Source of the DNA: a virus
Taxonomy: Duplodnaviria; Caudoviricetes
Direction: 5' to 3' (one strand)
IMG/VR virus record: IMGVR_UViG_3300032324_000909
Coordinates: 32,001 to 96,000 of that record
Length of the DNA: 64,000 nucleotides
Part shown: piece after piece, positions 22,599-52,195 of the stretch
Numbering within the stretch: the first letter of the stretch is position 1
How the letters are laid out: every line of letters starts with the position of its first letter
Translations under genes and position numbers: made by a program
Notes under the pieces: model-generated
What the model saw: only the letters and a program-made list of their open reading frames with translations
What the model was told of the DNA's origin: nothing
Databases searched by the model: none

Positions 22599-24191
22599 AT
22601 GGTAAAGGTTTTTTACAATGGAATTGATGTTTTTAGTGGCGTAGCACCTACGCCATTCATAGGTATTGATGACGAGTTTATTAGTTATGGTCAGAGATGG
22701 GGGGTGTCAAAAAAGATAACATTACAGGGAATGGTTACTGGTATATGCTCTGATTCTTACTCGGATTTAATATTTAAACAAAACAAGGTTTTTTCTGGTT
22801 TTCGTGAGGATTTTAAAAATCTTGAAATCAAAGAAGATGGGCAATCTCTTTTTAGTGGCAAATATATAAAAATAAACTCTATTGACTTTGATCAGTCTAA
22901 TTATGTTGGTATGTTAAATTTTACTATAGATTTAACATCTTATTCGGAAAACTTATTTACGGGTACGTATGGAGTTTTAGATCCGGTCTCGACTATTAAA
23001 TATACGGAACAGCAAGATGGAACAGTGGCAATTACTAGATCATTTTCAGCGCGAGGATTTAATACTTCAAATGGTACAAATAATGCCCTAAGTAATGCTA
23101 GGTCTTATGTACAATCTTTAACTGGCACTAGTTCTTTAATTCTACCGAAATTTATTAGCGTCACGCCATCGGGATCTAACCTATGCCCAAGAAAAATTTC
23201 AGAAACGGTCAATAGATTTAATTCCGAGTACAGTATTGATATTGATTATCTTTTAAGAAAATGCGCGAAAACTTCTAGTATAATATACTATAATATAGAT
23301 GCAGATTACGATGACGAGAGGGGTTTATATACCGCATCTATTAATGGTAATTTAGATGGTGCTTCGTGCAAAACAATGGCAGAATTAAGGGCGGAATTTG
23401 CTAATTTTAAACCGTATGATATAACATTAACTAATTTTAATAAATTAACTAATTATAACTATTTAAATATTGAACCAGAAAGTTTCTCAATTAATGAGAA
23501 TGATATTGATAACAAGATAGATTTTAATTATAGTTATACAAGTGATCCTCAAAATGTAAAATTTGATTATAGCATAGATATTAATAATGAATTTCTAACC
23601 GATCAGGTTTCAGTTGGTTTTAATGGAACTTTAACAGCAAGGGGGCCAGAGTCTGGCAGGCTGGACAAAGCAGAGGCCGCTTTAAATAATTTGAATATAA
23701 CACCACTATGTCAACAGTTTTATTTACAAAACGTAACTAATCCCAGTTTGCCGATGAATACCAACGCTAAAAATTATAGCGTTAAAAGAGATAAAATAAA
23801 TGGAACTATTTCTATTCAGTCAAGTTTTGATAACAGTCAGATTCCGCCAGCTGGTTTTAAAACTTTTGAATGGAGTTTGTCAATAACCCCTTCAATAAAT
23901 AAATATAATCCAATACAATATCTTAATGGCAATAATGGTGCTTTTAATTTAAACATGTTTAGTCGTGGACAAATTTCAGTACAGGGTAGCGCAACTTTTG
24001 AAACTTCGGATGACAAAACTTCGTTAGTAAGAAACAAGGCAATAGAAATTTTAAATTTATATACTGTGGATTTTAGCAATAGATTAAGAGTTGAAGATAG
24101 GGTTGAAAGAAATTTGCGAGCAGAAGATAATGGATATACATATTCTTTCACTATAAGCGATACCGCAGAAACATCAATTTTTTCAATATAA
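22599..24191 (+). CDS. Tail-tip/distal tail structural protein B (start 22599 ATG or 22590 TTG)
   Basis: Paralog-like to 21029 gene (KKITLQG / KKLAIEG; INSIDFD / ITSISFA). Confidence 0.55.
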   Translation: MVKVFYNGIDVFSGVAPTPFIGIDDEFISYGQRWGVSKKITLQGMVTGICSDSYSDLIFKQNKVFSGFREDFKNLEIKEDGQSLFSGKYIKINSIDFDQSNYVGMLNFTIDLTSYSENLFTGTYGVLDPVSTIKYTEQQDGTVAITRSFSARGFNTSNGTNNALSNARSYVQSLTGTSSLILPKFISVTPSGSNLCPRKISETVNRFNSEYSIDIDYLLRKCAKTSSIIYYNIDADYDDERGLYTASINGNLDGASCKTMAELRAEFANFKPYDITLTNFNKLTNYNYLNIEPESFSINENDIDNKIDFNYSYTSDPQNVKFDYSIDINNEFLTDQVSVGFNGTLTARGPESGRLDKAEAALNNLNITPLCQQFYLQNVTNPSLPMNTNAKNYSVKRDKINGTISIQSSFDNSQIPPAGFKTFEWSLSITPSINKYNPIQYLNGNNGAFNLNMFSRGQISVQGSATFETSDDKTSLVRNKAIEILNLYTVDFSNRLRVEDRVERNLRAEDNGYTYSFTISDTAETSIFSI

Positions 24192-26335
24192 TGTCAAATC
24201 ACTCAGTTCCATATTTTTTAAACTTATATAATAGCGTTGCAAACGATAATTGCAAGGTGTTTTTTGATTTTAATTTAACTGGAAATTCTATTACTAATAT
24301 TAGTGGAATTGGTCCGGAAGTTAGTGGGCAGATAGTTCCAACATTAAATGGTTTCTGGAATAATTCTGGAAATGGATTTTTTTCTGGTAATTCCGTTAAG
24401 ATAACAAATACTGGAAATAATATTAATTTATCAGATAGTACTTATGTAGTAGTTTATGAAAATTTGGCTAGTGGAGGAGGGACTTTAATATCAACAGTAG
24501 ATACCGGAAATAACGGCTCAGGATTATATTACAAGGGCTTTGAATTTGGTTTCACTGCTAATAACACTTTATATTTTGAATATTATACAAATAATGGCCC
24601 TCAGGTTTTCACTTCTAGTTCCACGCTATCGGATAAGGGTTCTGTATATTTAACGGTAACCAATAATGAAATTTCATTTGGTGATTATAATTATTTTTAT
24701 AACAAACTAAATTCTAATAATTTTTTAATTGATAGTAATTATATTTTTGATCCTAAAAATATATACTTAGGTTATAATAGCAATGTAGTAAATAGTTATA
24801 ACTATAATAAAAGATTCACTGGCTATATGCAGCAGTTTATGCTATTTAGTCCTTATGTTTATCTAAATGATATTGTATACTTAAATACTGGTTTTGCGCA
24901 TACTTTTATACCAGATATTACCTATGTGGAACAGGTTACTATTAATGAAATAACTGGATATTCTACTGGCATAGTTCCGTATTATTCAGGTGTAACCGGC
25001 TATTCAATTGTTCCTACTGGTGTTCTTGCTGATGATTTTTGTATTGAGTATACTGGCTATTCCCAAATAGCACTTACTGGTGCAGAATATGGTACTGGAA
25101 TAATACCTCTTTCTGGACAAAGGGTAGTTCAGTCAACTGGATATAGTGGTGCATACGTTGTTTTTAACAGTAATTTTGTTAATTCTTTTGGTAGATCGAA
25201 TATTAATGTATTAAAGAGTATAAAAGATAATGCAGTTGTTGATATGAGTATACCAACTGGTAATTATGATTATACGTATAGAACAAATTTAAGGGGTCAA
25301 TATGACTATGTCAAAAACTGTTTTTTTAATAATTATGACGCTAATTATTTTTACTATATTTCGAAAAATGGATTGGCAAAAATTTCTGGAATAAATATTA
25401 CGAGTGGTTCTGTATATAATACAAGCAACAGTATATCAAATGACTACTTAATTAATTCTAGAAATGAAGTTTTTTTTAGTGATAATTCTAGTGATAATGA
25501 CATGGTTATAATTGATAGCGCTGAAAACGCTTATAATACTAATTTATATATAAAAGATTTTAGTTTGGGCGACTGTTATTCCGAATCCGCAGAAATAAAA
25601 ACTGGATTTTTAGCAACCGGACAGTCAGTAGGTTTTACTGGTGATTGGGTTGACGTATCTTCAGGGGAAAGTTCCTTAATATTTATATATGCTAGTGGCA
25701 CTGGAAGTGGATCATTATCTTTAGAAATTTTAAGTGAGATAAGCGGACTTCAAAGTGGAATTAATATAGCATTAATTAATAATATATCTGGTGGATATTC
25801 GAGTATTATACCTAGATTGAATAATAATTTCAGTAAAATAAGAGCAATTGGTAATGGTTCTTCGCTCAACATGTGGTCTTGGATTACATATAGATTAATT
25901 AATTCTTCCGGCTGCGTGACTTCTGGTTATTACCCATCTGGACTTGGATTTATTCTTGATTGGCCGACCAATAATAGGCTATTCTTTTCTGGCAGGAAAA
26001 TGATTTCTGGAAAAATTGAAAATATTGGAATTAATTGTGATTATGCTGTAACCCCATCGGGTTTATATTTTGATGAATATAATGGGATTTTTTCTTACGG
26101 CTCTGGAGATTTGTTATTACTGCCAACCATATTTGATTATAATATCACTGGAAATAGTAATTTACTTAAAGCTAAAAATAGATATTATACTAACTATTCG
26201 GAAGTATATTTATCTGGAAAACGTTTAAATATTGGAATGGATTATTTAGAGCTACCTAATTTTGACAGTAATGCTGGCAGTGGTATTTTTGATATAAATA
26301 CTGATATATTGTATAATAGTAATATACTCCTCTAA
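24191..26335 (+). CDS. Virion protein with N-terminal LamG/concanavalin-like domain, S/T-G rich
   Basis: IYLG...FTGYMQQFMLFS LamG-like ending; about 45 SG/TG dipeptides by manual count. Confidence 0.55.
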   Translation: MSNHSVPYFLNLYNSVANDNCKVFFDFNLTGNSITNISGIGPEVSGQIVPTLNGFWNNSGNGFFSGNSVKITNTGNNINLSDSTYVVVYENLASGGGTLISTVDTGNNGSGLYYKGFEFGFTANNTLYFEYYTNNGPQVFTSSSTLSDKGSVYLTVTNNEISFGDYNYFYNKLNSNNFLIDSNYIFDPKNIYLGYNSNVVNSYNYNKRFTGYMQQFMLFSPYVYLNDIVYLNTGFAHTFIPDITYVEQVTINEITGYSTGIVPYYSGVTGYSIVPTGVLADDFCIEYTGYSQIALTGAEYGTGIIPLSGQRVVQSTGYSGAYVVFNSNFVNSFGRSNINVLKSIKDNAVVDMSIPTGNYDYTYRTNLRGQYDYVKNCFFNNYDANYFYYISKNGLAKISGINITSGSVYNTSNSISNDYLINSRNEVFFSDNSSDNDMVIIDSAENAYNTNLYIKDFSLGDCYSESAEIKTGFLATGQSVGFTGDWVDVSSGESSLIFIYASGTGSGSLSLEILSEISGLQSGINIALINNISGGYSSIIPRLNNNFSKIRAIGNGSSLNMWSWITYRLINSSGCVTSGYYPSGLGFILDWPTNNRLFFSGRKMISGKIENIGINCDYAVTPSGLYFDEYNGIFSYGSGDLLLLPTIFDYNITGNSNLLKAKNRYYTNYSEVYLSGKRLNIGMDYLELPNFDSNAGSGIFDINTDILYNSNILL

Positions 26336-26337: not shown

Positions 26338-28920
26338 ATGTCAAATAAAATTTTAACAGTTAGCGATATTGGGGGGAATTTTTTTGGAGGACTTCCATAT
26401 AATATATCTTGGGATTTTAATGATGGGTCATCCCCATCCACGCTATCTGTAAGTGTAATAACTGAAAATGGCCAATATCCGGATATTGATGGTCAATTAA
26501 CTTTTAATAATGTGGCTAGAGTTACGATAGGTAATTTTATTTTTAATGGGTATCTAGTCGCTTATGATATAAGCAAGTCACCAGATCAGAAAATATTAAA
26601 TTTAAAATATATAGATAAGAGTGCGGACTTGGAAAGATGGTATGTTGGTCTTCGTAAGAGGCATGGAAGTCAGACAGGTACTTCTGGAAAACGTTTAATA
26701 ATTGTTGGAAAAGAATATCATCCGTGTGATCAAAATTATGATTCCACTGTAAGTTATCAAGAATTAAATTCAAATATTATAGACCCTTGTGATCCTTGTC
26801 CTTTTACTCCAGAAAATAAATATCAAAACACATGCGATCAAACTTTGGCAGATTTTCAAATCTTAGAAGTGTATTATACATTTAATGAGTTACTAAATCA
26901 ATTGCCACTACCCTACGATGCGCCCTCTAATATTAATAATAGATTTCGCGCACAACATACCGGCAAATTAAAGGATGTTTTGGGTGCATGGTGTTCTGAT
27001 TTGGGATTGGCTTATTATTGGGATCCAATAAATAATAAGTTGTTTTTTGTAGATAGAAAACACCCATTAAAAATCCCCGCAATTTCGGAGTTAGAAGGAA
27101 TTAGTAATGTTATTGATTTGCAATATGGGGGTAGTAAACAAAATACATTTAGTAGGGGGTTCTTAGGTTACTTTGCCAAAGAAGGTAAAGTACAAAACTA
27201 TACATGCGAATTATCTCAAAGCCAATCTTTCCAAAATCTCAAGTGCTTAACAATGAAGGATCTGCTTAATCCAACAGTTTCTGCAGAACAAAATCCTGCG
27301 GGAGTTAATTTTTTAAAAATGAAGGAATTTCAAGCTATGCTATCTCAGTATGGTAGGGCAACTAGGGATGCTGTTTTATGGTTTTACTCTTATAGGATAC
27401 TAAATGCAGCTAATTTAAATGCATATAAGTATAGTTCAGGTGGTGGTGGTCAGGAACAGTTAAAAATATTGCAGGAACTTGGTAATATGAAAATATTAGA
27501 TATTTATTCAATTAATAATAATAGTGCTAATTTTATTTCATGTAAGAAAAAACTTTCAAAAGAAGAGATAAATGCATTAAAAGAGTTCGATATAAGTAAG
27601 GGAAGAGATCCGGCCACAAATCCTTCTTATTATTTTTTTGTTGCTGAACTTAGTGAAGATTTGGCGGAGCAGCAGTTTAATGATTCTGAATATATAGCCA
27701 AAAACTTTTTGGGTAAATTCTGGCTTAAAAAATTTAATACCCCAATACCCGGAGCGACTAACAGTAGCACTCAAATGACAGCAGAAGGTCCAGACGGTAA
27801 TGTAAATTGGTATCCAGCGCGTGAAGACTTGAGCGGCTTGGATATTTTTAATTTTGGACATCAGACTGGTTCTTTAGTTGGTAATTTAAAGGATGCTTTA
27901 CAGTCAGAACAAATAAGTAATCAAAACCCATTTACTCAGGCTAATGGCGGAGACTCGGCTAAAAAAATTCGTGCAAATAGTTCTTTTTTATTGTTAAATA
28001 GAGATGCTAAATGGAGTCCAAGTGGTGATAATTTAAAATATTATGATACTCTTTTTAAATGGTACGAAGAGCACGTACCGAAGGTATTTGGCAATGCAGA
28101 GGGAAGGCCAGATTTTCTTTATAAGTTATATCCAGAAGCAAAAAAAAATCCAAATATTAAATTATTCTTTGCAAGGGAATTACCATCCTTCAATGTAACT
28201 GTGGCTGATAGCAATCACCCTTTGGACACACCAAGCCCAACCGATAAAACAGTATCGCTAGAGGCAACTGATGGGTCACAAGTAACCAGATCCTTGGGTA
28301 GGTATGGCCTCAGAAGCAATAAATGTGTTAAAATTACATTACCGGGCATGGAAATATTTACTCCATCGCAATGTTTAAGTGATGCATGGACTAATATTAA
28401 TGATGGGGATTCTGGTTATGATATTTATTTGGAAGCTCGTACTAATTTCCCTAAAGTAATACCAAAAATTCAATATACTATAAATAGGGATATAAATAGT
28501 GAAGATGCGGCACAAATTGATTATTATTTAAAAGAAATTAGAGAAGATAACTTAAACTCAATAAGAGGTCCTAATACAAATTGTATTATACCAATAGATG
28601 ATATCAAAAGATATGTAGATTCTATTTATGAAAACTCTAACTATGAAATGACAGAAGTGCAAAAAACGGCATCATTTAAGGTAGCTGGTTTAATGCCAGT
28701 TCAGAATTATGGTGTAAGCGATGGACTTTCTTCCGTACAGATAACTGTATCAGATAATGGTATATATACTTCTTATTCATTTGAAGATAAAGTAGTACAA
28801 CCGCCAAGTGAAGACTATATAATGCAGAATTTAATAGATAAAACTAAACCAATTGGTAGTCTAGATGGCAATATGCCCACAACAAATCACATTAACTTCC
28901 TAAGAGATTCTGGTGTATAA
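26338..28920 (+). CDS. Putative baseplate hub/tail tip protein
   Basis: Hub-like N-terminus (FNGYLVAYDI...YIDKS; LKDVLGAWCSDLGLAYYWD). Confidence 0.5.
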   Translation: MSNKILTVSDIGGNFFGGLPYNISWDFNDGSSPSTLSVSVITENGQYPDIDGQLTFNNVARVTIGNFIFNGYLVAYDISKSPDQKILNLKYIDKSADLERWYVGLRKRHGSQTGTSGKRLIIVGKEYHPCDQNYDSTVSYQELNSNIIDPCDPCPFTPENKYQNTCDQTLADFQILEVYYTFNELLNQLPLPYDAPSNINNRFRAQHTGKLKDVLGAWCSDLGLAYYWDPINNKLFFVDRKHPLKIPAISELEGISNVIDLQYGGSKQNTFSRGFLGYFAKEGKVQNYTCELSQSQSFQNLKCLTMKDLLNPTVSAEQNPAGVNFLKMKEFQAMLSQYGRATRDAVLWFYSYRILNAANLNAYKYSSGGGGQEQLKILQELGNMKILDIYSINNNSANFISCKKKLSKEEINALKEFDISKGRDPATNPSYYFFVAELSEDLAEQQFNDSEYIAKNFLGKFWLKKFNTPIPGATNSSTQMTAEGPDGNVNWYPAREDLSGLDIFNFGHQTGSLVGNLKDALQSEQISNQNPFTQANGGDSAKKIRANSSFLLLNRDAKWSPSGDNLKYYDTLFKWYEEHVPKVFGNAEGRPDFLYKLYPEAKKNPNIKLFFARELPSFNVTVADSNHPLDTPSPTDKTVSLEATDGSQVTRSLGRYGLRSNKCVKITLPGMEIFTPSQCLSDAWTNINDGDSGYDIYLEARTNFPKVIPKIQYTINRDINSEDAAQIDYYLKEIREDNLNSIRGPNTNCIIPIDDIKRYVDSIYENSNYEMTEVQKTASFKVAGLMPVQNYGVSDGLSSVQITVSDNGIYTSYSFEDKVVQPPSEDYIMQNLIDKTKPIGSLDGNMPTTNHINFLRDSGV

Positions 28921-28938: not shown

Positions 28939-30876
28939 ATGGTAATTACAGGTGAAAGGCATAGGACAATCTATCCACAAAAAAGTATAAATTGGACTTC
29001 TTCATATGAAATTACAAACACTTATGGAAGATTTTCGGCATCTTTTTCTGGGATCGGTGGTAATTGTAATGTATTTACTCTTCATAACGGTAAGGTTCTT
29101 TCGCCAAAAAATGAAATGGTTGGTTCGTATTTAAATAATGAAACCTTGTCGTTATCAGGAAATATTGGCACAAAAACATTAGATTTATATAAGAATAATG
29201 TGCCCTTATATTTGGGCCTAGAAAGAACCACTACTGGAGATTTAAATACAGTTATTCTTAATGATGTGAGTGGACAGTCTGTTACTCTTAACAATCTAAC
29301 GCTGATTGGTGGAGTTCCAGAACTAATATATAATAAATATTTGACTTTTAATACTGGAGACACTATACCATTTACTATATATAATACAGGTTTAAATAAT
29401 TTAACTATTTTTTCGGGAGCTGTTAATAACAGCAATTTTACATTAATTGGTATTGAAAATTTAACAGTTCCAGCTAGTGGTAGTGGTACTTTTTTTGTTC
29501 AGAGTTTGTTAAGTGGAATAACTTATACTCCGCAGGATATTCCAATATTAATTGATAGCAGCATTGGTAAAAAAAACTTATTATTACAAATATCTGGTAT
29601 ATTACCTCAAGATAATTTATATTACATATCTCTTGGACCGGAAGATGGTAGTGTATATGATGCTACGTATAATACATATAACGTATCCATTGGTAACCCT
29701 TCGGGAGTTGGTTTGTCAATTGGTTTGAATTATATTAGTGGTATAACTGGAGACTATTACCGTATTACTGAAGCCACTGGATTCAAATCTTCTGGAATAG
29801 TATCTGGATTTATATCTGGCACTGGCTATTTAAATGGCAATATTACTGGCGTGATTAGCGGTTTTAATACATTAAACTCACAATATGAATTTGGTGTCGG
29901 AACGGGAAATGCCTATTCTTTATATAAGATATCTGATGATAAGCTTGTTACTGGGTTTTATAGTGTATTAGGAACTGGAATTGGAAATATAAGTGGCCAA
30001 TCAGGGGTGACTGGATATTTTTATTTAACTGGTATTACTGGGGGGCTTTCTGAAACTGGTTATTACAAAAAATCTTTTATAGTTACTGGTAGTGGATACT
30101 ATGTTGATAGTGATAATTATCCATATTACCCATTAGTGACTGGAACTAAACAAGCCAGTGGGATTGTTTTTGTAGATGAAATAAAATTAAATAGTTTTGA
30201 TTATATATCTATAAATAATAGGCCTATATATTATAACAGTGGTACAAATTATTTGCCTCCAAATTATTTTAATAGTAGAACTGGTTTAATTAATATTGTT
30301 AATAACTATACTGGGATTTTTTTATGTACTGGATTTTCTTTTGGGTCTAGTGGTGTAATTTTGAATTCATTACTTATTGGTAATTCAGGTAATTTTATTG
30401 GTTTGGCCGCAAGTGGCTCGGGAGTCAGTACTTCAAGCCCAACATTAATTGATGGTAAAACTTATTATCTACAAATGTCTCCATCTGGTAATTTTTCAGG
30501 GATTGCATCTGTATCATTTGCTTCAACAGGTTACTATACTGGATATAGTTCTGGCAATATAACAGGATATATTAATAAATTTACTGGAGTAAGGCGTTTT
30601 ACTGGTATTTGGGATATACAAACTGGATCAAATTTTAATTTTATTTCATATAGAGATAATAATCTTTTAAGCGGGATAAATTATTATAATTCTATACAGC
30701 CAAGTCCAACAGGTAGCAATTCCGCATTAATTCAGGTTAGATCTTTTTATTCTAATAGTTTAAATACCTTACAAAGCGAGCAAACAGATGTAGCAGATAT
30801 AGTTATTAGTGGTGTAAATTTTGGCCCTTCTGGCAGTGGGATTAATTTTAGATTAGTTGGTATAAAAAATTTATAA
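28939..30876 (+). CDS. Tail-associated structural protein, extremely S/T-G rich
   Basis: Own late promoter; roughly 57 SG/TG dipeptides in 645 aa by manual count. Confidence 0.6.
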   Translation: MVITGERHRTIYPQKSINWTSSYEITNTYGRFSASFSGIGGNCNVFTLHNGKVLSPKNEMVGSYLNNETLSLSGNIGTKTLDLYKNNVPLYLGLERTTTGDLNTVILNDVSGQSVTLNNLTLIGGVPELIYNKYLTFNTGDTIPFTIYNTGLNNLTIFSGAVNNSNFTLIGIENLTVPASGSGTFFVQSLLSGITYTPQDIPILIDSSIGKKNLLLQISGILPQDNLYYISLGPEDGSVYDATYNTYNVSIGNPSGVGLSIGLNYISGITGDYYRITEATGFKSSGIVSGFISGTGYLNGNITGVISGFNTLNSQYEFGVGTGNAYSLYKISDDKLVTGFYSVLGTGIGNISGQSGVTGYFYLTGITGGLSETGYYKKSFIVTGSGYYVDSDNYPYYPLVTGTKQASGIVFVDEIKLNSFDYISINNRPIYYNSGTNYLPPNYFNSRTGLINIVNNYTGIFLCTGFSFGSSGVILNSLLIGNSGNFIGLAASGSGVSTSSPTLIDGKTYYLQMSPSGNFSGIASVSFASTGYYTGYSSGNITGYINKFTGVRRFTGIWDIQTGSNFNFISYRDNNLLSGINYYNSIQPSPTGSNSALIQVRSFYSNSLNTLQSEQTDVADIVISGVNFGPSGSGINFRLVGIKNL

Positions 30877-31979: not shown

Positions 31980-31986
31980 CCTATTT

Positions 31987-33834: not shown

Positions 33835-33840
33835 TTACAT

Positions 33841-33869
33841 ATTTTCTGAAAAATTTCTAAATAAGTCAA
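33841..33869 (-). promoter_or_regulatory. Sigma70-type promoter positioned for leaderless start at 33834
   Basis: Minus strand TTGACT-N17-GAAAAT-N6-ATG. Confidence 0.45.
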
Positions 33870-43723: not shown

Positions 43724-44767
43724 ATGGTTAAAAAAATTATAGTAACAGGAATAACTGGTCAAGATGGTAGTTATATGGTTGATTATCTACTTGAAAATAC
43801 TGATCACCATATTTTTGGAATGGTTAGAAGAAGTAGCAATTTAAATACTGTTAACATATCACACTTACTTAATAACCCAAGATTAACTATTATTACGGGA
43901 GATTTATCTGACAGTCAATCAATAGATTCCATTATTAAAGAAATTAATCCAGATTATTTTATTAATCTAGCAGCACAAAGCTTTGTTGGTAGTAGTTGGC
44001 AAATTCCAGAACAAACATTCGATGTTGGCGCTGTCGGGATTATTAGGTGTTTAGAGGCAATTCGCAAACACGCACCAAATTGCAGGTTTTATAATGCAGG
44101 CTCTAGCGAAGAACTTGGTAATGTTGATTACTCGCCACAAGATGAAAACCATCCGTTAAAACCTAGAAGTCCGTATGGCGCAGCTAAAGCTGCCGCTAGG
44201 CATATTGTAAAAGTATATCGTGAGAGTTATAATTTATATGCAATTCAGGGGTTATTATATAATCACGAATCAGAACGTCGTGGTGTAGAATTTGTTACTA
44301 GAAAAATCACAAAGGGAGTCGCCAGAATTAAAAATGCTATTAATAACAATATTCCATTTGCCCCGTTAGAATTAGGCAATATTGACGCAAAGCGTGACTG
44401 GAGTCATGCGCTTGATTTTGTAGATGGTATTTGGAAAATGTTAAACCAAGAACAGCCCAAGGAACATCTACTTTCTTCTGGAGAAACACATACAGTAAGA
44501 GAGTTTATTGAATTAGCTTTTGAAAACGCTAAAATCCAAGGAAATTGGAAAGGTGATGGCATAGATGAACAATTTATTGATAAGGATGGGTCTATTTTAA
44601 TTAAAATTAATTCAGAGTTTTATCGTCCAGCGGAAGTTGATTTACTTTGGGGCGATTCATCAACGGCAAGAATTGAACTAGCATGGGTTCCAAAAATTTC
44701 CTTCAAAGAACTTATAAAAAGAATGGTTGAAAGGGATTTAGTTATTGAAAATAGTGTAAATATGTAA
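43724..44767 (+). CDS. gmd: GDP-mannose 4,6-dehydratase
   Basis: TGITGQDGSY, AAQSFV, PRSPYGAAK, NHESERRG..FVTRKI, RDWSHA, YRPAEVDLL. Confidence 0.95.
   Translation: MVKKIIVTGITGQDGSYMVDYLLENTDHHIFGMVRRSSNLNTVNISHLLNNPRLTIITGDLSDSQSIDSIIKEINPDYFINLAAQSFVGSSWQIPEQTFDVGAVGIIRCLEAIRKHAPNCRFYNAGSSEELGNVDYSPQDENHPLKPRSPYGAAKAAARHIVKVYRESYNLYAIQGLLYNHESERRGVEFVTRKITKGVARIKNAINNNIPFAPLELGNIDAKRDWSHALDFVDGIWKMLNQEQPKEHLLSSGETHTVREFIELAFENAKIQGNWKGDGIDEQFIDKDGSILIKINSEFYRPAEVDLLWGDSSTARIELAWVPKISFKELIKRMVERDLVIENSVNM
44754..44759 (+). promoter_or_regulatory. GTGTAA motif before small Cys-rich gene
   Basis: 18 nt upstream of ATG 44778. Confidence 0.4.
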
Positions 44768-44777
44768 CATAATCCTT

Positions 44778-44963
44778 ATGAATGGAGAAGAAAAACTTAG
44801 CACTTGTAAATTCCGCTCACAAGATGAGCAGGAAAGACTTATTACTAGATGTGCCTGTAGAGGGGGAAACTATACAGACAAAGGATTCTTCTGCGAAAAG
44901 AGGGAAATTTTCAAAATCCAAAAAGAAACCTGCGAAGGCTGTTCGGAATACGAGTCTAAATAA
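44778..44963 (+). CDS. Small Cys-rich protein, paralog of 32798..33013
   Basis: CKFR...CxC...GFFCEKREIF...CEGCSEYE. Confidence 0.65.
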   Translation: MNGEEKLSTCKFRSQDEQERLITRCACRGGNYTDKGFFCEKREIFKIQKETCEGCSEYESK

Positions 44964-45300
44964 AAGAGATTTTGTTTTAAAGTTTACTAAACCAGACGCG
45001 AGTATAGTCTGGCCAAGAGAGATGAAGATAGTAAATTCTCTCCTAAAGATTTTTCCAAATGATTTATTCTGGAATTCTTTAACATTAAGATTTCAGTTAA
45101 ATAGTCTTTGCTGGTTCCTTTCCGACGAAGGAAGGAAAATGTTAAATACTGAATACAAAAAATTCATTTTTGAACCTGAAAAACCACAGAATTTTGTTCT
45201 GGAAAATAATAATATTGAGTTTCAGGGAAAAATAGGTGAAACTGTACAAGCACCTATGACAGTGCGAGAATTTTTAAATTTATGGCAAAAGAAGAAGTAA
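44782..45300 (+). CDS. Hypothetical protein overlapping the 61-aa gene (start uncertain)
   Basis: Fills gap to recA; globular-looking WPREMKI...FWNSL...LNSLCWF region. Confidence 0.55.
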   Translation: MEKKNLALVNSAHKMSRKDLLLDVPVEGETIQTKDSSAKRGKFSKSKKKPAKAVRNTSLNKRDFVLKFTKPDASIVWPREMKIVNSLLKIFPNDLFWNSLTLRFQLNSLCWFLSDEGRKMLNTEYKKFIFEPEKPQNFVLENNNIEFQGKIGETVQAPMTVREFLNLWQKKK

Positions 45301-46382
45301 AATCAAACTCAAGTCAATCCGTATTAGCATCCTTTCTAAAGAGCACGAAGGGCGAACACTATAACTTTGAAGACGAAAAAATTTTTAACGTATCTACAGG
45401 CTCACTCCTCTTGGATTCAGAGATGGGAGGATCGTTAGAAGTTCCAGCAATTTTACGTTTTACTGGCGTAAGTGGTGGTGGAAAAACCAGTTCCGCTCTT
45501 CTTATTATGAAGAATTTCCTAGATACGGTACCAAAGGGTAAGGGTTTTCTAGTTAAAGCAGAAGGAAGGCTTAACTCTAATGTAAAAAATGTATCTGGAG
45601 TTAAGTTTGTAGACAAGGCCGAAGATTGGGTTGATGGAACTTGCTTCGTATTGCGTACTAATATTTATGAAAATGTTGCAAGTATTATCTTGGAATTAAT
45701 TAAGAATAATCCAGACGAATCTAGATATTATTTTTTAATTGATAGCATGGATGCGCTTATCGCTAAAAACGATGCCGCCAAGGGCTTTGAAGATAGTCAA
45801 AAAGTCGCCGCTGGAGCAGTTATTAGTTCGCATTTTCTAAAAATGATCATGTTGCCACTATCAACTTTTGGACATGTTTGCGCGCTAATCTCACAGGTGC
45901 GTTCTAATGTTCAAATTAATCCGTACGCTAAAACAGACCCAAAACTTACAAATAGTTCTGGTGGCAATGCTCTACAGCATTATGCTGATTGGATTTTCGA
46001 GTTCCAACCTAGATATAAAGCAGACCAGATAGTTGAAGATGGAAAAATTATTGGCCATTGGGCAAAAATTCTTCTCCGAAAGACCACAAACGAGAAGGAA
46101 GGAACTGAAATATTGTACCCAATTCGCCATGGTAGAACTGGTGGAAATAGTATTTGGATAGAATATGAAGTATCCGATATGTTAATTCAATGGGGCTTTG
46201 CAAAAAAGGCTGGTGCTTGGATCAATCTTGATTCTAAATTAATAGACGAAGTCTCAAAAGAGACTGGGCAAGCAGTACCAAGTACAATTCAAGGAATGGA
46301 AAAGTTAAGAACTTTCTTGGAAGAAAATAAAGAAATTTGTCTTTACTTATTCAATAAGTTCAAGGGCGCACTAGCAAAATAA
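45282..46382 (+). CDS. recA: RecA/UvsX-like recombinase
   Basis: VSTGSLLLD, GVSGGGKTS, IDSMDAL, ISQVR, SGGNALQHYAD. Confidence 0.85.
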   Translation: MAKEEVKSNSSQSVLASFLKSTKGEHYNFEDEKIFNVSTGSLLLDSEMGGSLEVPAILRFTGVSGGGKTSSALLIMKNFLDTVPKGKGFLVKAEGRLNSNVKNVSGVKFVDKAEDWVDGTCFVLRTNIYENVASIILELIKNNPDESRYYFLIDSMDALIAKNDAAKGFEDSQKVAAGAVISSHFLKMIMLPLSTFGHVCALISQVRSNVQINPYAKTDPKLTNSSGGNALQHYADWIFEFQPRYKADQIVEDGKIIGHWAKILLRKTTNEKEGTEILYPIRHGRTGGNSIWIEYEVSDMLIQWGFAKKAGAWINLDSKLIDEVSKETGQAVPSTIQGMEKLRTFLEENKEICLYLFNKFKGALAK

Positions 46383-47326
46383 TGTCCCAAGAAACGGTAT
46401 CTATTCGTTTAGAAGGCGGCATCGGTGATCATCTATTAGCCAATAGGTTCATCGGTGCTATAAAAGAAAAGCACCCTAATGCTCAATTAAATTTCTATTC
46501 AGATACTGAAAATAACGACAAACAGATAAATTTGCTTAAGTATGCTTGGCCAAGTATTTATACAAATAATAATTGCAAAGTAATTGAAAGTAGAAAAAGT
46601 AAAGATTTTAAAGTAAAAAGTCAGTTTGGAGAAGAGGTTTATAACTGCCATCTAGATAATCTACCAGATCAATATATTAAACTATTTAACGACTCAGATT
46701 ACTTCTATAATCTATGTATAGACAACCTTGACTGGCTAAATTATAGTTTTGATTGGAAACGATATTTTTATTTCTTTCCAAGACCAGAGATAAATAATCA
46801 GTTGTCTGATATTAAAGATAGTTATATTCTTACACATCTTTACCCAAGGCCCAACTCTGATCATAATGTTGAACAGTGGTATGTTATAGCACTGCTTAAA
46901 AAGCTATTAGCGTCTGGTAAGCAGGTTGTTTCGGTGTGCCAAACCGAATATATGGATTTTTATAAAGAAATCTCAGATCTTCAATATCCAAACTTTACTT
47001 TGACAGACTGCTCACTAGAAGATTTTTTTGCATTAAGCGAGGCATGTTCCGCCTTTATTGGCGTAGACTCTGGATTGAGATATTTCCCACTACACTATGG
47101 AAAACCTACCTATGTATTTTCAAAATATTGCAAAGAACCCCTTCAGGCATGGCCATCCCATGTGCTTCGATGGCTAGTGTTCGAAAAGTATGTTTTTCCA
47201 ATGCATTATGACATCAATACGGTTTGCAATGTACTGATTAACTCTACTTCCCATCCAGCATGTAGCCTATTCCCAAACCTTGGAGATAAAATAGAAAATA
47301 GCATTATACAAAGATTTTATAAATAA
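46382..47326 (+). CDS. GT9-like glycosyltransferase
   Basis: GGIGDHLL and FIGVDSG motifs. Confidence 0.7.
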   Translation: MSQETVSIRLEGGIGDHLLANRFIGAIKEKHPNAQLNFYSDTENNDKQINLLKYAWPSIYTNNNCKVIESRKSKDFKVKSQFGEEVYNCHLDNLPDQYIKLFNDSDYFYNLCIDNLDWLNYSFDWKRYFYFFPRPEINNQLSDIKDSYILTHLYPRPNSDHNVEQWYVIALLKKLLASGKQVVSVCQTEYMDFYKEISDLQYPNFTLTDCSLEDFFALSEACSAFIGVDSGLRYFPLHYGKPTYVFSKYCKEPLQAWPSHVLRWLVFEKYVFPMHYDINTVCNVLINSTSHPACSLFPNLGDKIENSIIQRFYK

Positions 47327-47338
47327 ATTAGAAAAAAT

Positions 47339-48145
47339 ATGATCATAGACTGTTTTACATTTTTTAATGAATTAGATATATTAGAAATAAGGTTAGAAGA
47401 ACTTTACAATACGGTTGATTATTTTGTTTTAGTAGAGGCATCGAAAACACAAAGCCTTTTACCTAAAAAATATTATTTTGAAGAAAATAAGGAAAGATAT
47501 AAAAAATATCTAGATAAAATTATTCATGTAAAAGTAGATGACTGTCCAGACAATTCTTCTGATTTATGGACTATGGAGAATTTTCAAAGAAATGCTATAG
47601 TTAGAGGTATAAATCAAATATCTAATATATCAGATAATGATGTAATATTAATATCAGATTTAGATGAAATTCCAAATCACAAAATTTTAAAGCAAATTGA
47701 TTCCATAGAAGAAGAAGCTTTTTCGTTTGAAATGTTATTTTGTGCATATTATTTGAACCTAATAGCCGCACACAGACAGTGGATTGGAACAGTTGCTTGT
47801 AAATATAAAATTTTTAAAAACCTTATTCCACAGCACCTTAGGAATGTCAAAGACCAATTACCTTGCATACGCAATGCTGGTTGGCACTTTAGCTGGATGG
47901 GTGGTTATGAAAAAATTTATGAAAAATCCCTATCCTGTATAGAACCATTTAATAAGAAAGAATTACCCTCAAAAGAAGAATTTAAAAAGCATTTTGAAAA
48001 CTTTGCGATAAATGATAACAAGTTTTTTATTCATTTGGAAAATTTATCTAAAAAAGAAACAGAATTTAAAAAAATACAGATAAATGAAATATTTCCTATC
48101 TTTGTAATCGAAAATCAAACCAAATTATCTGAATTCATAATATGA
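47339..48145 (+). CDS. GT17-like glycosyltransferase
   Basis: DCFTFFNELDILEIRL, ENFQRN, ISDLDEIP, GWHFSW. Confidence 0.85.
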   Translation: MIIDCFTFFNELDILEIRLEELYNTVDYFVLVEASKTQSLLPKKYYFEENKERYKKYLDKIIHVKVDDCPDNSSDLWTMENFQRNAIVRGINQISNISDNDVILISDLDEIPNHKILKQIDSIEEEAFSFEMLFCAYYLNLIAAHRQWIGTVACKYKIFKNLIPQHLRNVKDQLPCIRNAGWHFSWMGGYEKIYEKSLSCIEPFNKKELPSKEEFKKHFENFAINDNKFFIHLENLSKKETEFKKIQINEIFPIFVIENQTKLSEFII

Positions 48146-48173
48146 ACCAAGAGATAATAAGCTTAACATTAAT

Positions 48174-49025
48174 ATGAAAATATGGGGAACAAGATTTAGT
48201 CTAATAGGTGATATCGTAATGTCCTTGCCAATTTTAGAACATTTAAAAGATATTTACAGTACATATTATTGTTATTTTAGTATAGCGCAAAAATGCAAGC
48301 AATCTTTACCTATATTTATTAATCAACCCCTCATCAATGAAATAAAAATAAGTGATTTACCAGAAGAACTGGGAGACTTAGATAATGCCATTATATCTAA
48401 ATGTGATATAGTATTAAATGTAAAGCCACAACACCCAAACGAACAAGATTGGTATAACTATAGATCCTGCGTAGAAGAAACCGCATTAATGGCCGGATTT
48501 GACCCCTACAAATTTACAGGCAAGGTTCCAAAATTATTACAATACTGGCCAGACGACCATAAAATAAACACAAGCTCAAAAAATATAGTTATATGGCCAT
48601 TTGCTGGTTATGGCCAAGGCATTGCCAGAAGCCCGTCGCTAGAATGGTGGAAAAAATGTTTAGAAATATTGATAAACGATTTTGGCTATAAAATTATTCA
48701 CGCCGGGGTAGATTCCGAACCAGATATTATAAACCATCAAAACTATAAAAGAATTACTCAAATGTCATTTTTCGATCAGATTAAAGAATCTCTAAAAGCA
48801 GACCTCGCCATAGGTACAGACTCTGGATCCATGTGGGTTATAGGAGCATACTCTAAAATTCCACAAATTAATTTAATTACTAACTGGTTACCAAATCACC
48901 ATACAAACTTATTATCATTAGCGCCAACTGGAGATAAGACAATAAATCTTTTTGCACAAGATGGGTGTGATAATATCTCTATAAATGATTTAATTAATAA
49001 AATAAATGAAAATATTTGCATATAA
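48174..49025 (+). CDS. GT9-like glycosyltransferase
   Basis: SLIGDIVMSLP and IGTDSGSMW motifs. Confidence 0.75.
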   Translation: MKIWGTRFSLIGDIVMSLPILEHLKDIYSTYYCYFSIAQKCKQSLPIFINQPLINEIKISDLPEELGDLDNAIISKCDIVLNVKPQHPNEQDWYNYRSCVEETALMAGFDPYKFTGKVPKLLQYWPDDHKINTSSKNIVIWPFAGYGQGIARSPSLEWWKKCLEILINDFGYKIIHAGVDSEPDIINHQNYKRITQMSFFDQIKESLKADLAIGTDSGSMWVIGAYSKIPQINLITNWLPNHHTNLLSLAPTGDKTINLFAQDGCDNISINDLINKINENICI

Positions 49026-50028
49026 TGATAAACTAAACGTACCAACAGAGTTCGGCTCTTTTACGGTCGTTGCCAGAAAATTAAACGAGCAATTTAAAAA
49101 AATTAATGTATTAGGTAATATAGAAGATCCCGAAACCTTTGTTATTTATCCAGAAGTTTTCGATACAGCGCAAAGATGGCAGAGACAAATTCCATTATTA
49201 GCATGTGAATATAGTTTAATGCCACAAATTGTATTACAAAAATTAAATTCATATAATCCAAAAGTACTTGCTATTAGCGATTTTGCTAAAAATAATATAA
49301 TTAACTCTGGATATACTAACGTAGAGACAGTCCTATTGGGAAGCGATCCAATTCTATGGCGACCCATGGATATAAAAAAATTTGACACATTTACATACCT
49401 AACCGTAAACAGTAGCAATGAAAGAAGTGGATTTGAAAAGCTTATTCCAGCATTTATAGAGTTTAGTAAAGATAAAAATGTAAACCTAATAATCAAGGAT
49501 GGTAACAATCCAGAATTTAAAGAATATATAAAGTCACTGAATAATCCCAAAATTATCTATATGGACACGATAATGTCACAAGAAGAACTTTGCGAATTAT
49601 ATAATAAATCACACTTGTTTATTTACGCCAATAATACCACATCATTTGGCATGAATATCTTGGACTCCGTACTGTGTGGCATTCCCGTTATAGCAACATT
49701 CGGATCAGCCGTAAAAGAGTTTTTACCAGAATGGACACAACCATATAAAATTAAAACCGAAATCAAACATTTAAACTCTCAGTCTATTAAAAACTGGACA
49801 GATATTGGAATTAGATGTTTTCCCGAAACATTTCTTAATCTTTTTGCAGGAGACATTTATGGAGAAAGGGTAATACAGGAAGATATTCTTAATGCTCTGG
49901 ATTTTTCTTTTATAAATTATGATATGTATACTATAATATCCAAACAGCATAGAGAGTTTATTTTGGCCAACTATACTTGGGAAATATGCGCTAAAAATAT
50001 TATTCAAAAGCTACAAAATCATGATTAA
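49006..50028 (+). CDS. GT4-like glycosyltransferase
   Basis: AISDF, ERSG, SFGMNILDSVLCGIPVI, YTWE. Confidence 0.75.
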   Translation: MKIFAYNDKLNVPTEFGSFTVVARKLNEQFKKINVLGNIEDPETFVIYPEVFDTAQRWQRQIPLLACEYSLMPQIVLQKLNSYNPKVLAISDFAKNNIINSGYTNVETVLLGSDPILWRPMDIKKFDTFTYLTVNSSNERSGFEKLIPAFIEFSKDKNVNLIIKDGNNPEFKEYIKSLNNPKIIYMDTIMSQEELCELYNKSHLFIYANNTTSFGMNILDSVLCGIPVIATFGSAVKEFLPEWTQPYKIKTEIKHLNSQSIKNWTDIGIRCFPETFLNLFAGDIYGERVIQEDILNALDFSFINYDMYTIISKQHREFILANYTWEICAKNIIQKLQNHD

Positions 50029-50365
50029 TTTACAAGTAGACGAGGCATACGCATTTGATTACCTAACTATTTTAGAGGTAAAAAAAGACTTGTTTCCAGA
50101 TAGTCCTAAAATAATAGGATATGAAAACTGTTATAAGTTTTTATCAGATCAACTCCATAATTTTAATGATATAGTTAATTCAAAAGAATACCGCAGTTTA
50201 TACGAATCAAATAAAATTACCTTTGACTTAGTAGATAAAGCTAGAAATAATTTAAACGTAACAGCAAAAGAAGTAGATGATGCAAACATGGATAGATTTT
50301 ATTGTAAACAAGCGCTACAGAAAGCTTTTTTTTCTACGGCTTTAGTTGAATCCAAAATAGTATAA
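50021..50365 (+). CDS. Hypothetical helical protein in glycosylation cluster
   Basis: DYLTILEVK...N..RF..KQ...E.K pattern. Confidence 0.6.
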   Translation: MINLQVDEAYAFDYLTILEVKKDLFPDSPKIIGYENCYKFLSDQLHNFNDIVNSKEYRSLYESNKITFDLVDKARNNLNVTAKEVDDANMDRFYCKQALQKAFFSTALVESKIV

Positions 50366-50367
50366 AT

Positions 50368-51024
50368 ATGAATATTGAAGAACACTGTTATAACAATTTC
50401 GTTAAAAATGGAGACATTGCCTATGATATTGGGGCACATATTGGTTCAGTGTCTAATCGACTTATTAGTATTGGGGCGAGCAAGGTATTAGCGTTTGAGC
50501 CATGCGAAGCAAATTTTATTGATCTAAAAAACAATACAAAAGGAAACAATGTTGAATGCTATAACATAGCTTTTCACGATAGAGAATATACATGTAAAAC
50601 AAAATTTAGAGACTGCAGACAGGGTGTCCCATTAGACATGGAGCAAGAAATTAAGTATGTTAAATTTGATAATTTTATTCTATCCAATAATTTAGATTTA
50701 CCACAATTTGTTAAAATAGACATAGAAGGTATGGAAAGTCTTATATATAAGAATATGGAGTTTTTGTTTACAAGTAGTCGTCCAGTAATTTTTACAGAGT
50801 TTCATGTACCAGAAATAGGAAATACAGCACAAGATTACGAAGATAATCCCCACTGGAGGAGGCCAGAGCAAGGAGGGTATAACTTTAATAATCTTCGAGA
50901 CAACAATTATTCCTTTATAGACAAAACACTAAAATTAACAACGGATGGAGAATATAATCCCACAGCAGGACACTTTGGAAGAATTTTCATTCCAAACGAA
51001 AAGATATCTATCTATATAAATTAA
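50368..51024 (+). CDS. FkbM-family SAM methyltransferase
   Basis: YDIGAHIG, VLAFEP, VKIDIEGME. Confidence 0.85.
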   Translation: MNIEEHCYNNFVKNGDIAYDIGAHIGSVSNRLISIGASKVLAFEPCEANFIDLKNNTKGNNVECYNIAFHDREYTCKTKFRDCRQGVPLDMEQEIKYVKFDNFILSNNLDLPQFVKIDIEGMESLIYKNMEFLFTSSRPVIFTEFHVPEIGNTAQDYEDNPHWRRPEQGGYNFNNLRDNNYSFIDKTLKLTTDGEYNPTAGHFGRIFIPNEKISIYIN

Positions 51025-51028
51025 AAAC

Positions 51029-52195
51029 ATGAAATGGCTTCTGAACATTAATAACTTTTCTTTTTTAGAAAAACTCAAGATTTGTCTTTTTCTTTTAAAT
51101 CCTGAAAATCGATGGACGCAAGACAAGCAAGTTAAATCTTTTGAGAAAAAGTTTGCCGAGTTTGTGGGATGTAAATATGCCGTGTACGTTTCAAGCGGTT
51201 CCACTGCAAACATTCTAATTGCACAATATCATAAGAGCATACAAAAGAATAAAAATAAGAATATAGTAGTATTACCATCTACTACATGGCAAACATCTTG
51301 CGCACCTTGGATACAAGCTGGATTTGATCCACACTTTATAGATATTTCCTTAGAGGACTTTAGCATAGATAAAGAGAAACTAACAAATTTTGTAAAAAAC
51401 AATAAAAGTAAAATTGCCTGCATTTTCCCAACTTCCCTAATCGGCTACGTTCCAGACATGGAATACTACAAAGAATTACAAAATAAATATAAAGTTTCGA
51501 TAGCATTTGATAATTGCGAAAACACTCTTGGCAAATTCAACGGCAAAAATGTATCTTCATTCTTTACTTCATCTACTTCTACATATTTCGGTCACCAATT
51601 GCAATCTATTGAAGGTGGGTTCATATTTACAAACTCTGAAGATGAGTACAATTATTTCTTAATGGCCAGAAACCACGGCATGACAAGAAGTCTTACCGTA
51701 TATGGTATTGATAATTCCAAATTTGTTAACAATAAAGTAGATTCACTTTTCGATTTTAACATGCTGGGGTATAATTTTAGAAATACGGATCTAAATGCAT
51801 TTATTGGTCAAATAGATCTTGCTAAAGCATCGTTTTATACAGAAAAAAGAAAATCACTTTACTCCCTATATAAACTGAACAACGAAAAATTCTTTCTTCC
51901 AGAAATTTCAGAAGACAAAGAAAACGTCCCCTTTTGTTTGCCAGTAATAGTAAAAAATTCAAATAAAGAATTATTTAAAAAAGCACTAGAATTATGTAAA
52001 GAACAGGGCATAGAGTATAGGCCAATTATTTCTGGATACCTAGGCTACCAAACATGCTATAAAAAATATTTCAAATCTTCAAAACAGTATCCAAACTCTG
52101 TTGATATACACAACTATGGATTTTATATTGGACTACATTCTGGCGTAAAAGAAAAACAGATAATTAATCTTGTAAAAGAATTAAATAATTTGTAA
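51029..52195 (+). CDS. DegT/DnrJ-family PLP enzyme, ColD-like 3-dehydratase
   Basis: VSSGSTAN, DNCE, STYFGHQLQSIEGG (His at the usual Lys position), RNHG, GYNFR. Confidence 0.75.
   Translation: MKWLLNINNFSFLEKLKICLFLLNPENRWTQDKQVKSFEKKFAEFVGCKYAVYVSSGSTANILIAQYHKSIQKNKNKNIVVLPSTTWQTSCAPWIQAGFDPHFIDISLEDFSIDKEKLTNFVKNNKSKIACIFPTSLIGYVPDMEYYKELQNKYKVSIAFDNCENTLGKFNGKNVSSFFTSSTSTYFGHQLQSIEGGFIFTNSEDEYNYFLMARNHGMTRSLTVYGIDNSKFVNNKVDSLFDFNMLGYNFRNTDLNAFIGQIDLAKASFYTEKRKSLYSLYKLNNEKFFLPEISEDKENVPFCLPVIVKNSNKELFKKALELCKEQGIEYRPIISGYLGYQTCYKKYFKSSKQYPNSVDIHNYGFYIGLHSGVKEKQIINLVKELNNL

Follow-up and report, generated by a model that had tools for sequence, protein, structure and literature searches.

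A 64,000-nucleotide stretch of phage DNA, hereafter the window, encodes two distal tail or fibre proteins, P0001 and P0002, in which most glycines directly follow a serine or a threonine. The window covers positions 32001-96000 of an IMG/VR virus record (IMGVR_UViG_3300032324_000909) that is 140,531 bp long and has direct terminal repeats. P0001 and P0002 belong to a set of beta-rich proteins of the distal tail that has not been described before, and the reading that we favour, with a confidence that stays a little below even, is that hydrophobic-[Ser/Thr]-Gly is a conserved, purely structural building element of these proteins. The excess of Ser-Gly and Thr-Gly (together [ST]G) is statistically strong, specific for the hydroxyl residues, specific to fibre slots and conserved among homologues, and the model of P0002 is all-beta. 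The initial annotation had read the same signal as the acceptor motif of an O-glycosylation system with which the phage decorates exposed virion proteins. The genes of the distal tail region, with protein lengths in amino acids (aa), are as follows.

15236..21025, plus strand, tape-measure-sized gene (1929 aa)
21029..24191, plus strand, two conserved tail-tip proteins of about 510-535 aa directly after the tape measure, not [ST]G-enriched
24191..26335, plus strand, distal tail or fibre protein A (P0001, 714 aa), [ST]G-rich
26338..28920, plus strand, conserved 860-aa tail-tip protein between the two enriched genes, not enriched
28939..30876, plus strand, distal tail or fibre protein B (P0002, 645 aa), [ST]G-rich
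30888..32795, plus strand, variable three-gene cassette (363, 157 and 151 aa) that follows the fibre genes, nearly free of [ST]G

The expected number of [ST]G dipeptides and the corresponding z-score were derived for each protein from composition-preserving shuffles. In P0002, 57 of the 85 glycines are preceded by Ser or Thr (30 SG and 27 TG) against 18.3 expected (z 10.4), and P0001 has 45 out of 72 (26 SG and 19 TG) against 13.4 expected (z 10.0). The counts made by hand in the initial annotation (57 of about 85, and about 45) were exact on recomputation. Its statement that the reverse pairs are much rarer also holds: GS and GT together occur 16 times in P0002 (z -0.7) and 11 times in P0001, where this is the expected number, so the reverse dipeptide is not enriched. 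The neighbours described there as poor are indeed poor, with 1 [ST]G in 21029..22564 (5.8 expected), 9 in 26338..28920 (8.0 expected) and 0 in 30888..31979 (4.6 expected). The second of the two tail-tip proteins within 21029..24191 has 8 (5.9 expected), and the three proteins of the cassette have 0, 0 and 1. Of note, the first of these, 30888..31979, is free of the dipeptide despite the 60 Ser/Thr and 28 Gly among its 363 residues.

The wider suggestion, that decoration, tail tube, terminator and adaptor proteins carry the signal too, is a weak one: no protein of the window besides P0001 and P0002 exceeds z 3.1, the third-highest value (11066..11920). The capsid, tail-tube and baseplate neighbours show no clear enrichment and the other head and tail proteins remain at or below z 3.1. 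The homologue of the major capsid protein (MCP, 7910..9019) is at z 0.1; its bias is the opposite one, with Gly followed by Ser/Thr 12 times (z 3.8) and Ser/Thr-Gly at expectation. When genes were pooled, the head and tail genes (3939..15196) had 52 [ST]G against 33.6 expected (1.55-fold), the non-virion genes were at 1.22-fold of expectation, and the tape measure with the non-enriched tail-tip genes was depleted (39 against 55 expected, 0.71-fold). In the rest of the genome, the proteins that come next in enrichment are fibre-like too (z 4-6).

Genome, outside the window, Phage_tail_C/BppL_N protein with N-P-S-G-F-I repeats, z 6.1
Genome, outside the window, PATR beta-helix protein, z 4.6
Genome, outside the window, PTR tail-repeat protein, z 4.3
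Genome 100486..103109, minus strand, small three-gene cluster without family matches, moderately enriched

The moderately enriched fibre-like loci outside the window lie at genome positions 122147..124057 (minus), 100486..103109 (minus), 23403..25334 (plus) and 131835..133103 (plus).

The sites are encoded by codons of both Ser families and by Thr codons (ACT, AGT, TCT, TCA and ACA among them), followed by all four Gly codons. This mixture of codons indicates that selection acts on the protein and rules out a motif at the DNA level. Of note, the choice of Gly codon in P0001 and P0002 differs with context, GGA being the commonest after Ser/Thr (45 of 102) and GGT elsewhere (28 of 55; GGA 13). 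The spacing of the sites follows no single period, and no 15-residue period. Family-wide, only Thr and Ser are enriched before Gly, with observed/expected ratios (O/E) of 3.2 and 2.6, and all other residues are below 1; in the P0002 family Asn and Asp together are at 0.61 and Ala is at 0.72. Since Asn and Asp stand at the level of all other non-Ser/Thr residues (0.61), they are displaced from this position and not specially avoided. Ordinary turn preference and avoidance of Asn-Gly and Asp-Gly deamidation are unsupported on the same ground. No longer motif ([ST]-G-S or [ST]-G-x-T) was found, Ser/Thr at positions +1 and +2 of the Gly having an O/E of 0.8-0.96. At most conserved sites a hydrophobic residue, usually Ile, Val, Leu or Phe, precedes the Ser/Thr; the flanking residues are hydrophobic or aromatic, and Thr and Ser are equally frequent at the sites. 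Conserved Gly columns are of three kinds: (i) columns with only Ser before the Gly (for example positions 38, 74, 160, 220 and 268), (ii) columns with mostly Thr (for example 563 and 304) and (iii) columns in which Ser and Thr mix freely and the Gly is retained (for example 290, 521, 539, 625, 634 and 641). A general trait of phage fibres was rejected, as only 13-31% of the Gly in T4 gp34-37 and T5 pb1, pb3 and pb4 are preceded by Ser/Thr, with z of at most 3.4.

An exhaustive HMMER search led to P0002 homologues in 160 representative clusters at 50% identity. All homologues of at least 300 aa were enriched (135 proteins tested), with a median of 56% of the Gly after Ser/Thr and a median z of 10. 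Many of the homologues are 900-2400 aa long and carry just the N-terminal part (1 to about 390) or the C-terminal part (about 250-645) of P0002. P0002 is modular, and in the nearest relative (L002:9992-19287) its parts are divided between genes for 1305 and 1495 aa, with a 275-aa RCC1-repeat (beta-propeller) gene in between. Conservation was measured on an alignment of 16 full-length P0002 members that are 23-37% identical. For each P0002 site, 45% of the other sequences on average retain both residues. Ser/Thr is retained in 56% of the sequences at sites versus 28% for other Ser/Thr, Gly in 56% versus 45% for other Gly, and about half of the P0002 sites are fixed in position across these homologues.

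The order of the genes is identical in all related records examined: tape measure, two non-enriched proteins of about 540 aa, the enriched P0001 slot, a non-enriched 800-880-aa protein, the P0002 slot, the variable cassette and a convergent trio of genes for about 250, 400 and 640 aa. In these relatives the P0001 slot is always enriched, and the P0002 slot holds at least one enriched protein, with lengths that differ widely. The homologues of the two proteins of about 540 aa are not enriched, and those of 26338..28920 have 1-9 [ST]G versus 5-10 expected. This layout is kept in the 154-kb nearest relative and in G003, G004 and G007, where P0002 has no match, and also in contigs whose 640-aa trio protein is just 39-42% identical. 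With enrichment defined as a z of at least 5 and a fraction of at least 0.45, 46 of the 390 open reading frames in all related loci are enriched; they split into eight groups unrelated by BLASTP, and every group is made up of distal-tail or fibre-like genes from this clade of phages. P0001 and P0002 have no detectable BLAST relation to each other, and neither of them matched anything in Pfam, in PHROG, in DNA and tblastn searches of cultured phages or in a profile search of the PDB. By sequence comparison, the P0002 homologues are a large unannotated fibre family without a Pfam, PHROG or PDB relative.

The AlphaFold2 (AF2) monomer model of P0002, made from a 41-sequence alignment, is all-beta with a mean predicted local distance difference test (pLDDT) score of 87. 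The predicted parts are an N-terminal ConA/galectin-like domain, more beta-sandwich domains, a beta-meander at about 261-400 and a C-terminal beta domain. Residues 1-126 of the model form a galectin/ConA-like jelly roll with structural matches at Z 12-16, the best being the carbohydrate-binding module (CBM) of the sialidase BT_1020 (Z 15.8, root-mean-square deviation 1.8 over 126 residues), followed by many galectins at Z 12-13. At the level of the fold only, the P0002 N-terminus is predicted to be a ConA-like lectin/galectin-like domain. Residues 270-400 are modelled as strands of 16-23 residues. Out of the 57 sites, the model places 30 within strands and 9 at their boundaries, whereas 14 fall in coil and 4 in helix, and their density reaches 14 per 100 residues in 261-400. 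At strand ends (F-S-F-S-G, L-S-L-S-G) the alternation of residues sets the Ser on the face opposite the hydrophobics, which would be exposed in a two-layer sandwich. The two faces of 286-308 read G-V-G-I-G-G-L-G-I-G-I-G and S-I-S-F-S-T-Y-N-N-T-V-S-F, so that Gly alternates with aliphatic residues on one face, and Ser/Thr with aromatic or hydrophobic residues on the other. Buried turns of a beta-solenoid, the case that the initial annotation had named as refuting glycosylation, are not what the AF2 monomer displays: it consists of sandwich domains and long hairpins. A Foldseek search with the whole P0002 model returned only generic multi-Ig chains (TM about 0.1), and the dense region modelled alone, as a 166-aa homologue (pLDDT 59), gave no solved analogue (best Z 2.3).

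From these data we infer that the hydroxyl has a structural role, that the fibre packs as an oligomer and that the sites are unmodified. In the sandwich domains the motif would end beta-strands, with the Ser on the face opposite the buried hydrophobics and the Gly beginning the turn. In the long-stranded region, where it recurs every 3-6 residues within the modelled strands, the two faces may suit close packing, or bulges, in a fibre that is strongly twisted and probably oligomeric. The hydroxyl might provide a side-chain-to-backbone hydrogen bond or belong to a polar/aromatic surface that binds host glycans, and the neighbouring glycosyltransferases (GTs) would act on something else, for example the host envelope. 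The retention of Ser/Thr and Gly at the sites argues for such a structural element, being typical of fold-defining residues, and 14 sites per 100 residues in 261-400 are more suggestive of a repeat architecture than of tags dispersed over the surface. The remaining phage proteins lack the [ST]G avoidance (O/E 1.2) that would be expected under a promiscuous cytoplasmic enzyme acting on the bare dipeptide. The hydrophobic flanks, the mid-strand placement and the lack of clear enrichment in capsid and tube point in the same direction. With no solved analogue for the dense region, a fold of a new kind with its own sequence rule is plausible.

Five points weigh against a purely structural motif. 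The signature appears to be independent of fold and family, as it is found in regions predicted to be ConA-like, sandwich and long-stranded and in at least eight BLAST-unrelated groups. It is lacking in the adjacent baseplate-type proteins as well as in T4 gp34-37 and T5 pb1-pb4. Only Ser and Thr are enriched before Gly (2.6 and 3.2), and Asn/Asp, the usual turn partners, are at 0.61 and Ala at 0.72. Many sites exchange Ser and Thr freely and keep the Gly. Finally, GT genes are conserved beside these genes, and in two contigs a GT gene lies within the operon. The GT genes of the window that adjoin the fibre module form the following trio.

33013..33834, minus strand, trio member 3 (273 aa), with a homologous slot of 247-276 aa adjoining the GT pair in the examined relatives
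33872..35050, minus strand, GT9 C-lobe protein (P0155), the predicted half of a heptosyltransferase-type GT-B that binds the nucleotide sugar, PF01075 E 9e-15, then about 210 aa without assigned domain
35076..37007, minus strand, fusion of a GT4-like domain, DUF4214 and a GT9 N-lobe (P0156, 643 aa), from profile matches

The third member has no Pfam, NCBIfam or PDB match. P0155 matches PF01075 with 55 bits (cut-off 22), profile positions 105-238 aligning to its residues 30-154, which corresponds to the C-lobe only, and it matches the C-lobes of PDB 3tov and 1psw. A GT9 C-lobe match above the cut-off is also present in 8 of the 14 related records. The lipopolysaccharide (LPS) heptosyltransferase models of NCBIfam match P0155 weakly and far below their cut-offs, and its look-alikes in the ESM Atlas form virus-only clusters of 109-472 members. 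For P0156, 15 out of 15 homologues match PF00534 (best E 8.5e-7) and DUF4214, and the C-terminal segment (profile 529-589) aligns weakly to residues 7-67 of the GT9 structures 3tov and 1psw (E 0.09-0.4). Judging from these alignments, one GT9-type GT-B enzyme appears to be split over the P0156 C-terminus and P0155, so that the two lobes are not in one polypeptide. The split is kept in all relatives, to about 40% identity; there, the genes either abut or share a few bases of overlap. Three GT9 domains had been counted in the initial annotation; Pfam gives a single GT9 match genome-wide. The trio genes run convergently to the [ST]G-rich fibre genes and adjoin them in the relatives examined, with GT identity down to 39-42%. 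Two contigs have a GT47 gene (PF03016 E 3.5e-17) that is flanked by enriched fibre genes of its own strand, and the two copies are 37% identical.

L108:5609-6391, plus strand, 260-aa GT47 (Exostosin-type), overlapping the upstream gene
L131:8460-9245, minus strand, 260-aa GT47 (Exostosin-type)

Of note, in two relatives of 28-30% GC (L120:1382-4079 and L124:1376-4099, minus strand) two Gmd-type dehydratase paralogues and a 660-aa gene adjoin the trio, and this sugar island next to the fibre module is larger than the one in the window.

The foremost alternative, possible but in our judgement somewhat doubtful, is that the motif is a sequon and that phage enzymes O-glycosylate the hydroxyl of hydrophobic-[Ser/Thr]-Gly in the infected cell. 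The best candidate enzyme would be the conserved GT4/split-GT9 pair beside the fibres, with GT47 in some relatives. The variable genes for GT17, GT4, Gmd, a ColD/RfbH-type enzyme and FkbM may extend or vary the glycan, and the product would be a sugar-coated distal fibre serving stability, resistance to proteases or grazing, masking or adhesion. A sequon is consistent with an enrichment that is hydroxyl-specific, one-directional and tolerant of free Ser/Thr exchange, that is independent of fold yet restricted to distal tail and fibre proteins, and that is missing from the fibres of model phages. It also agrees with the model, in which residue alternation at strand ends would set the Ser on an exposed face. 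The position of the trio beside [ST]G-rich genes in relatives argues for it, as do the conservation of a virus-specific GT while hypervariable fibres still keep the motif, the GT47 between enriched fibre genes in two contigs and the Gmd-type genes beside the trio in L120 and L124. There are two precedents: TibC, which is GT9-like, heptosylates Ser313 in the N-S-G-G of the TibA beta-helix (PMC4358343), and mycobacteriophage capsids bear glycans that phage GTs attach, according to the work cited in PMC11256854.

Other observations count against a sequon. Capsid and tube have no clear enrichment and the other phage proteins do not avoid [ST]G, and a structural role would account just as well for the strong positional conservation and mid-strand placement of the sites. 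The substrates of GT4 and GT9 enzymes are mostly lipopolysaccharide and polysaccharides, and enzymes that modify the host receptor would likewise be expected to have their genes beside those of receptor-binding proteins. The models that P0155 matches are those of LPS heptosyltransferases and not the one for autotransporter heptosyltransferases, and the protein has no CxxC iron finger. In addition, the distant contig JAAURC010000035.1 has enriched fibres with the terminase directly behind them, and no trio occurs in the 54 kb of it that were read. In the most specific version of the proposal, which we put forward only tentatively, a large freshwater phage clade would coat its distal fibres with sugars by means of a phage-specific enzyme that combines a GT4-like domain with a two-polypeptide heptosyltransferase-type GT-B, acting on hydrophobic-Ser/Thr-Gly at strand ends or bulges of folded beta domains, with the assistance of GT47 in some lineages and of variable sugar-nucleotide genes. 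The motif would then be a minimal, structure-read sequon kept by hypervariable receptor-binding proteins. A sequon that receptor-binding proteins must keep would, if true, explain how the motif survives wholesale domain swapping. In all, the part of the original proposal that stands is an enrichment at the protein level that is hydroxyl-specific, conserved and located beside conserved GTs; its extension to exposed virion proteins in general is unsupported, since capsid and tail tube, the most exposed of them, are not clearly enriched. On these sequence comparisons glycosylation is a plausible hypothesis.

The initial annotation had also held that relatives devoid of GTs but keeping the enrichment would speak against glycosylation. 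GT4 and/or GT9 matches were found in 12 of the 14 related records, including records that have no P0002 match but do have enriched slots, and the two records without a GT match are fragments (about 35% and about 53% completeness). The most divergent relative found is JAAURC010000035.1 (L132), whose terminase is 36% and capsid protein 41% identical. In it the enriched fibres (z up to 13) are directly followed by the terminase; no trio, Gmd, GT17 or GT47 was found in the 54 kb read of this contig, which is probably incomplete, and a homologue of the 390-aa protein encoded at 38873..40045 (listed below) is present. Because no relative free of GT-like genes was found, the co-occurrence of GTs and enrichment cannot discriminate between the readings. 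Of note, the terminase of this contig (L132:11104-15565) matches in three tblastn pieces and may be interrupted; it is followed by genes for an ERCC4 nuclease and a TnpB-like protein (Cas12f1-like_TNB), and upstream there are two genes of tape-measure size (1058 and 1749 aa).

We consider it quite unlikely that the motif forms a glycan-binding surface in which Ser/Thr and aromatic residues on one sheet face bind carbohydrate, as in lectins and CBMs, while the Gly/aliphatic face packs the core and the GTs are unrelated. The alternating faces predicted for 286-308 and the galectin/ConA-like N-terminal domain of the model would suit such a surface. P0001 look-alikes in the Atlas carry Laminin_G_3, which is a lead only, and the genes occupy the hypervariable receptor-binding slots of the tail module. 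Binding surfaces, however, usually vary with host range, whereas the positions of the motif are conserved in these hypervariable proteins, and the motif is also found at strand ends, in domains without such a ladder. We give next to no credence to an artefact of composition, low-complexity repeats or a DNA-level motif: the proteins are indeed rich in Ser, Thr, Gly and Asn, but the z of about 10 comes from shuffles that keep composition, the reverse dipeptide is not enriched, codons are mixed, no single period exists and the positions are conserved in homologues of 23-37% identity.

Beyond the trio, the window carries the following other genes with sugar-related matches.

38873..40045, plus strand, conserved 390-aa protein with a sub-threshold GT4 match only (PF00534 E 3.9e-4, 16 bits)
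43724..44767, plus strand, Gmd (GDP-mannose 4,6-dehydratase), PF16363 E 7e-111, TIGR01472 E 1e-110 (370 bits, cut-off 415)
47339..48145, plus strand, GT17-family glycosyltransferase, PF04724 E 4e-28
49006..50028, plus strand, GT4 glycosyltransferase, PF00534 E 4e-11
50368..51024, plus strand, FkbM-type methyltransferase, PF05050 E 5e-9
51029..52195, plus strand, DegT/RfbH/ColD-type pyridoxal phosphate-dependent sugar enzyme, PF01041 E 3e-47, with RfbH and PseC models at E 1e-36, below their cut-offs

The sugar cluster 43724..52195 lies inside the replication module and is variable. GT17 was found in 1 of the 14 related records searched (G001); it occurs only in this phage and its nearest relative. 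Homologues of 38873..40045 are present in relatives, the distant contig JAAURC010000035.1 included. The inventory of sugar genes given in the initial annotation was confirmed in part. Our searches recovered GT17, the GT4 at 49006..50028, the GT4-like N-terminus of 35076..37007, a split GT9, Gmd, the DegT/RfbH/ColD-type enzyme and FkbM; the GT4 similarity of 38873..40045 stayed below threshold. A search for ADP-heptose synthesis genes gave no gmhA match in the phage.

The phage is an uncultured lake phage and its relatives form a clade of uncultured freshwater phages; its GC content is about 33%. The remaining landmarks of the window are these.

18..1919, plus strand, large terminase, from PHROG terminase matches
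3939..15196 (pooled in the counts), plus strand, head and tail genes between the terminase and the tape measure
7910..9019, plus strand, MCP homologue, from synteny and 41% identity to the gene of a relative

The only family match in the cassette 30888..32795 (Pfam, PHROG) is DUF6171/phrog_13558, in its last protein. The tail-tip genes and the cassette are followed by a short minus-strand block (33013..37870), beyond which lies a module for replication and nucleotide metabolism with ribonucleotide reductase (RNR), RecA-like, DnaB, primase, dCMP deaminase and Clp protease genes. The ClpP-type protease of this module is at 57143..57706 (plus strand, E 4e-27). A small protein at 43310..43684 (plus strand) has a faint match to the T4 late-transcription coactivator family (E 0.006).

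Should the fibres prove to be glycosylated, theirs would be the first protein-glycosylation sequon to be established for the tail fibres of phages, and the first case from outside the actinobacteriophages, and the candidate enzyme family would be virus-specific with hundreds of members. It would also change how fibre structures, host-range predictions and the surface chemistry of environmental phages are read. A purely structural motif, too, defines a large fibre family that lacks annotation, and a simple sequence rule would flag such distal tail proteins in metagenomes. Either way, a direct test is possible with two genes and one GT pair.

Among known systems, the triple beta-spiral of adenovirus and reovirus attachment fibres, like other fibre repeats with a conserved Gly turn, has a small or hydroxyl residue followed by Gly at the turn between short strands. 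In contrast, the fibres of this phage have no 15-residue period, and their sites are much denser and also occur inside globular sandwich domains. Eukaryotic proteoglycan xylosylation takes place at Ser-Gly, requires acidic neighbours and is not known to use Thr. The analogy with it that the initial annotation had drawn is limited to the Ser-Gly dipeptide, as the flanks are here hydrophobic or aromatic, not acidic, and Thr is as frequent as Ser. Our literature search gave no report of glycosylated tail fibres carrying such a motif. Mycobacteriophage virions (Che8, Rita; Freeman et al. 2023) carry a glycan on the major capsid protein, as cited in PMC11256854. They share with this phage the presence of phage-encoded glycosyltransferases and, as a proposal, a glycan coat on virion proteins; the candidates are here distal tail fibres, and host, lineage, motif and GT families differ. 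Capsid or tube subunits of this phage might still be glycosylated at an acceptor site other than [ST]G.

In the bacterial autotransporter heptosyltransferase systems (TibC/AAH) acting on TibA and AIDA-I, the gene of a cytoplasmic heptosyltransferase-type GT-B adjoins that of its beta-rich adhesin substrate, in which many Ser at strand-loop-strand positions are modified (PMC4358343). TibC modifies Ser and not Thr, and its family is marked by a four-cysteine iron finger and an N-terminal beta-barrel. Ser313 is one mapped site, and the iron ligands of TibC are Cys339, 342, 358 and 370 (PMC4358343). Here too a GT9-type gene adjoins beta-rich, adhesin-like fibre genes that are dense in Ser/Thr-Gly, a resemblance in gene placement only. 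Unlike the TibC/AAH enzymes, P0155 and P0156 gave no TibC match among PDB chains (for P0155 by phmmer with E up to 1). The six Cys of P0155 are scattered and include no CxxC pair, and two polypeptides share the GT9, which is joined to a GT4-like domain and DUF4214. Ser and Thr interchange at the sites, and the candidate substrates are not beta-helices in the model. Membership of the TibC/AAH family is thus unsupported by these comparisons, and what the two systems appear to share is a logic, not a family.

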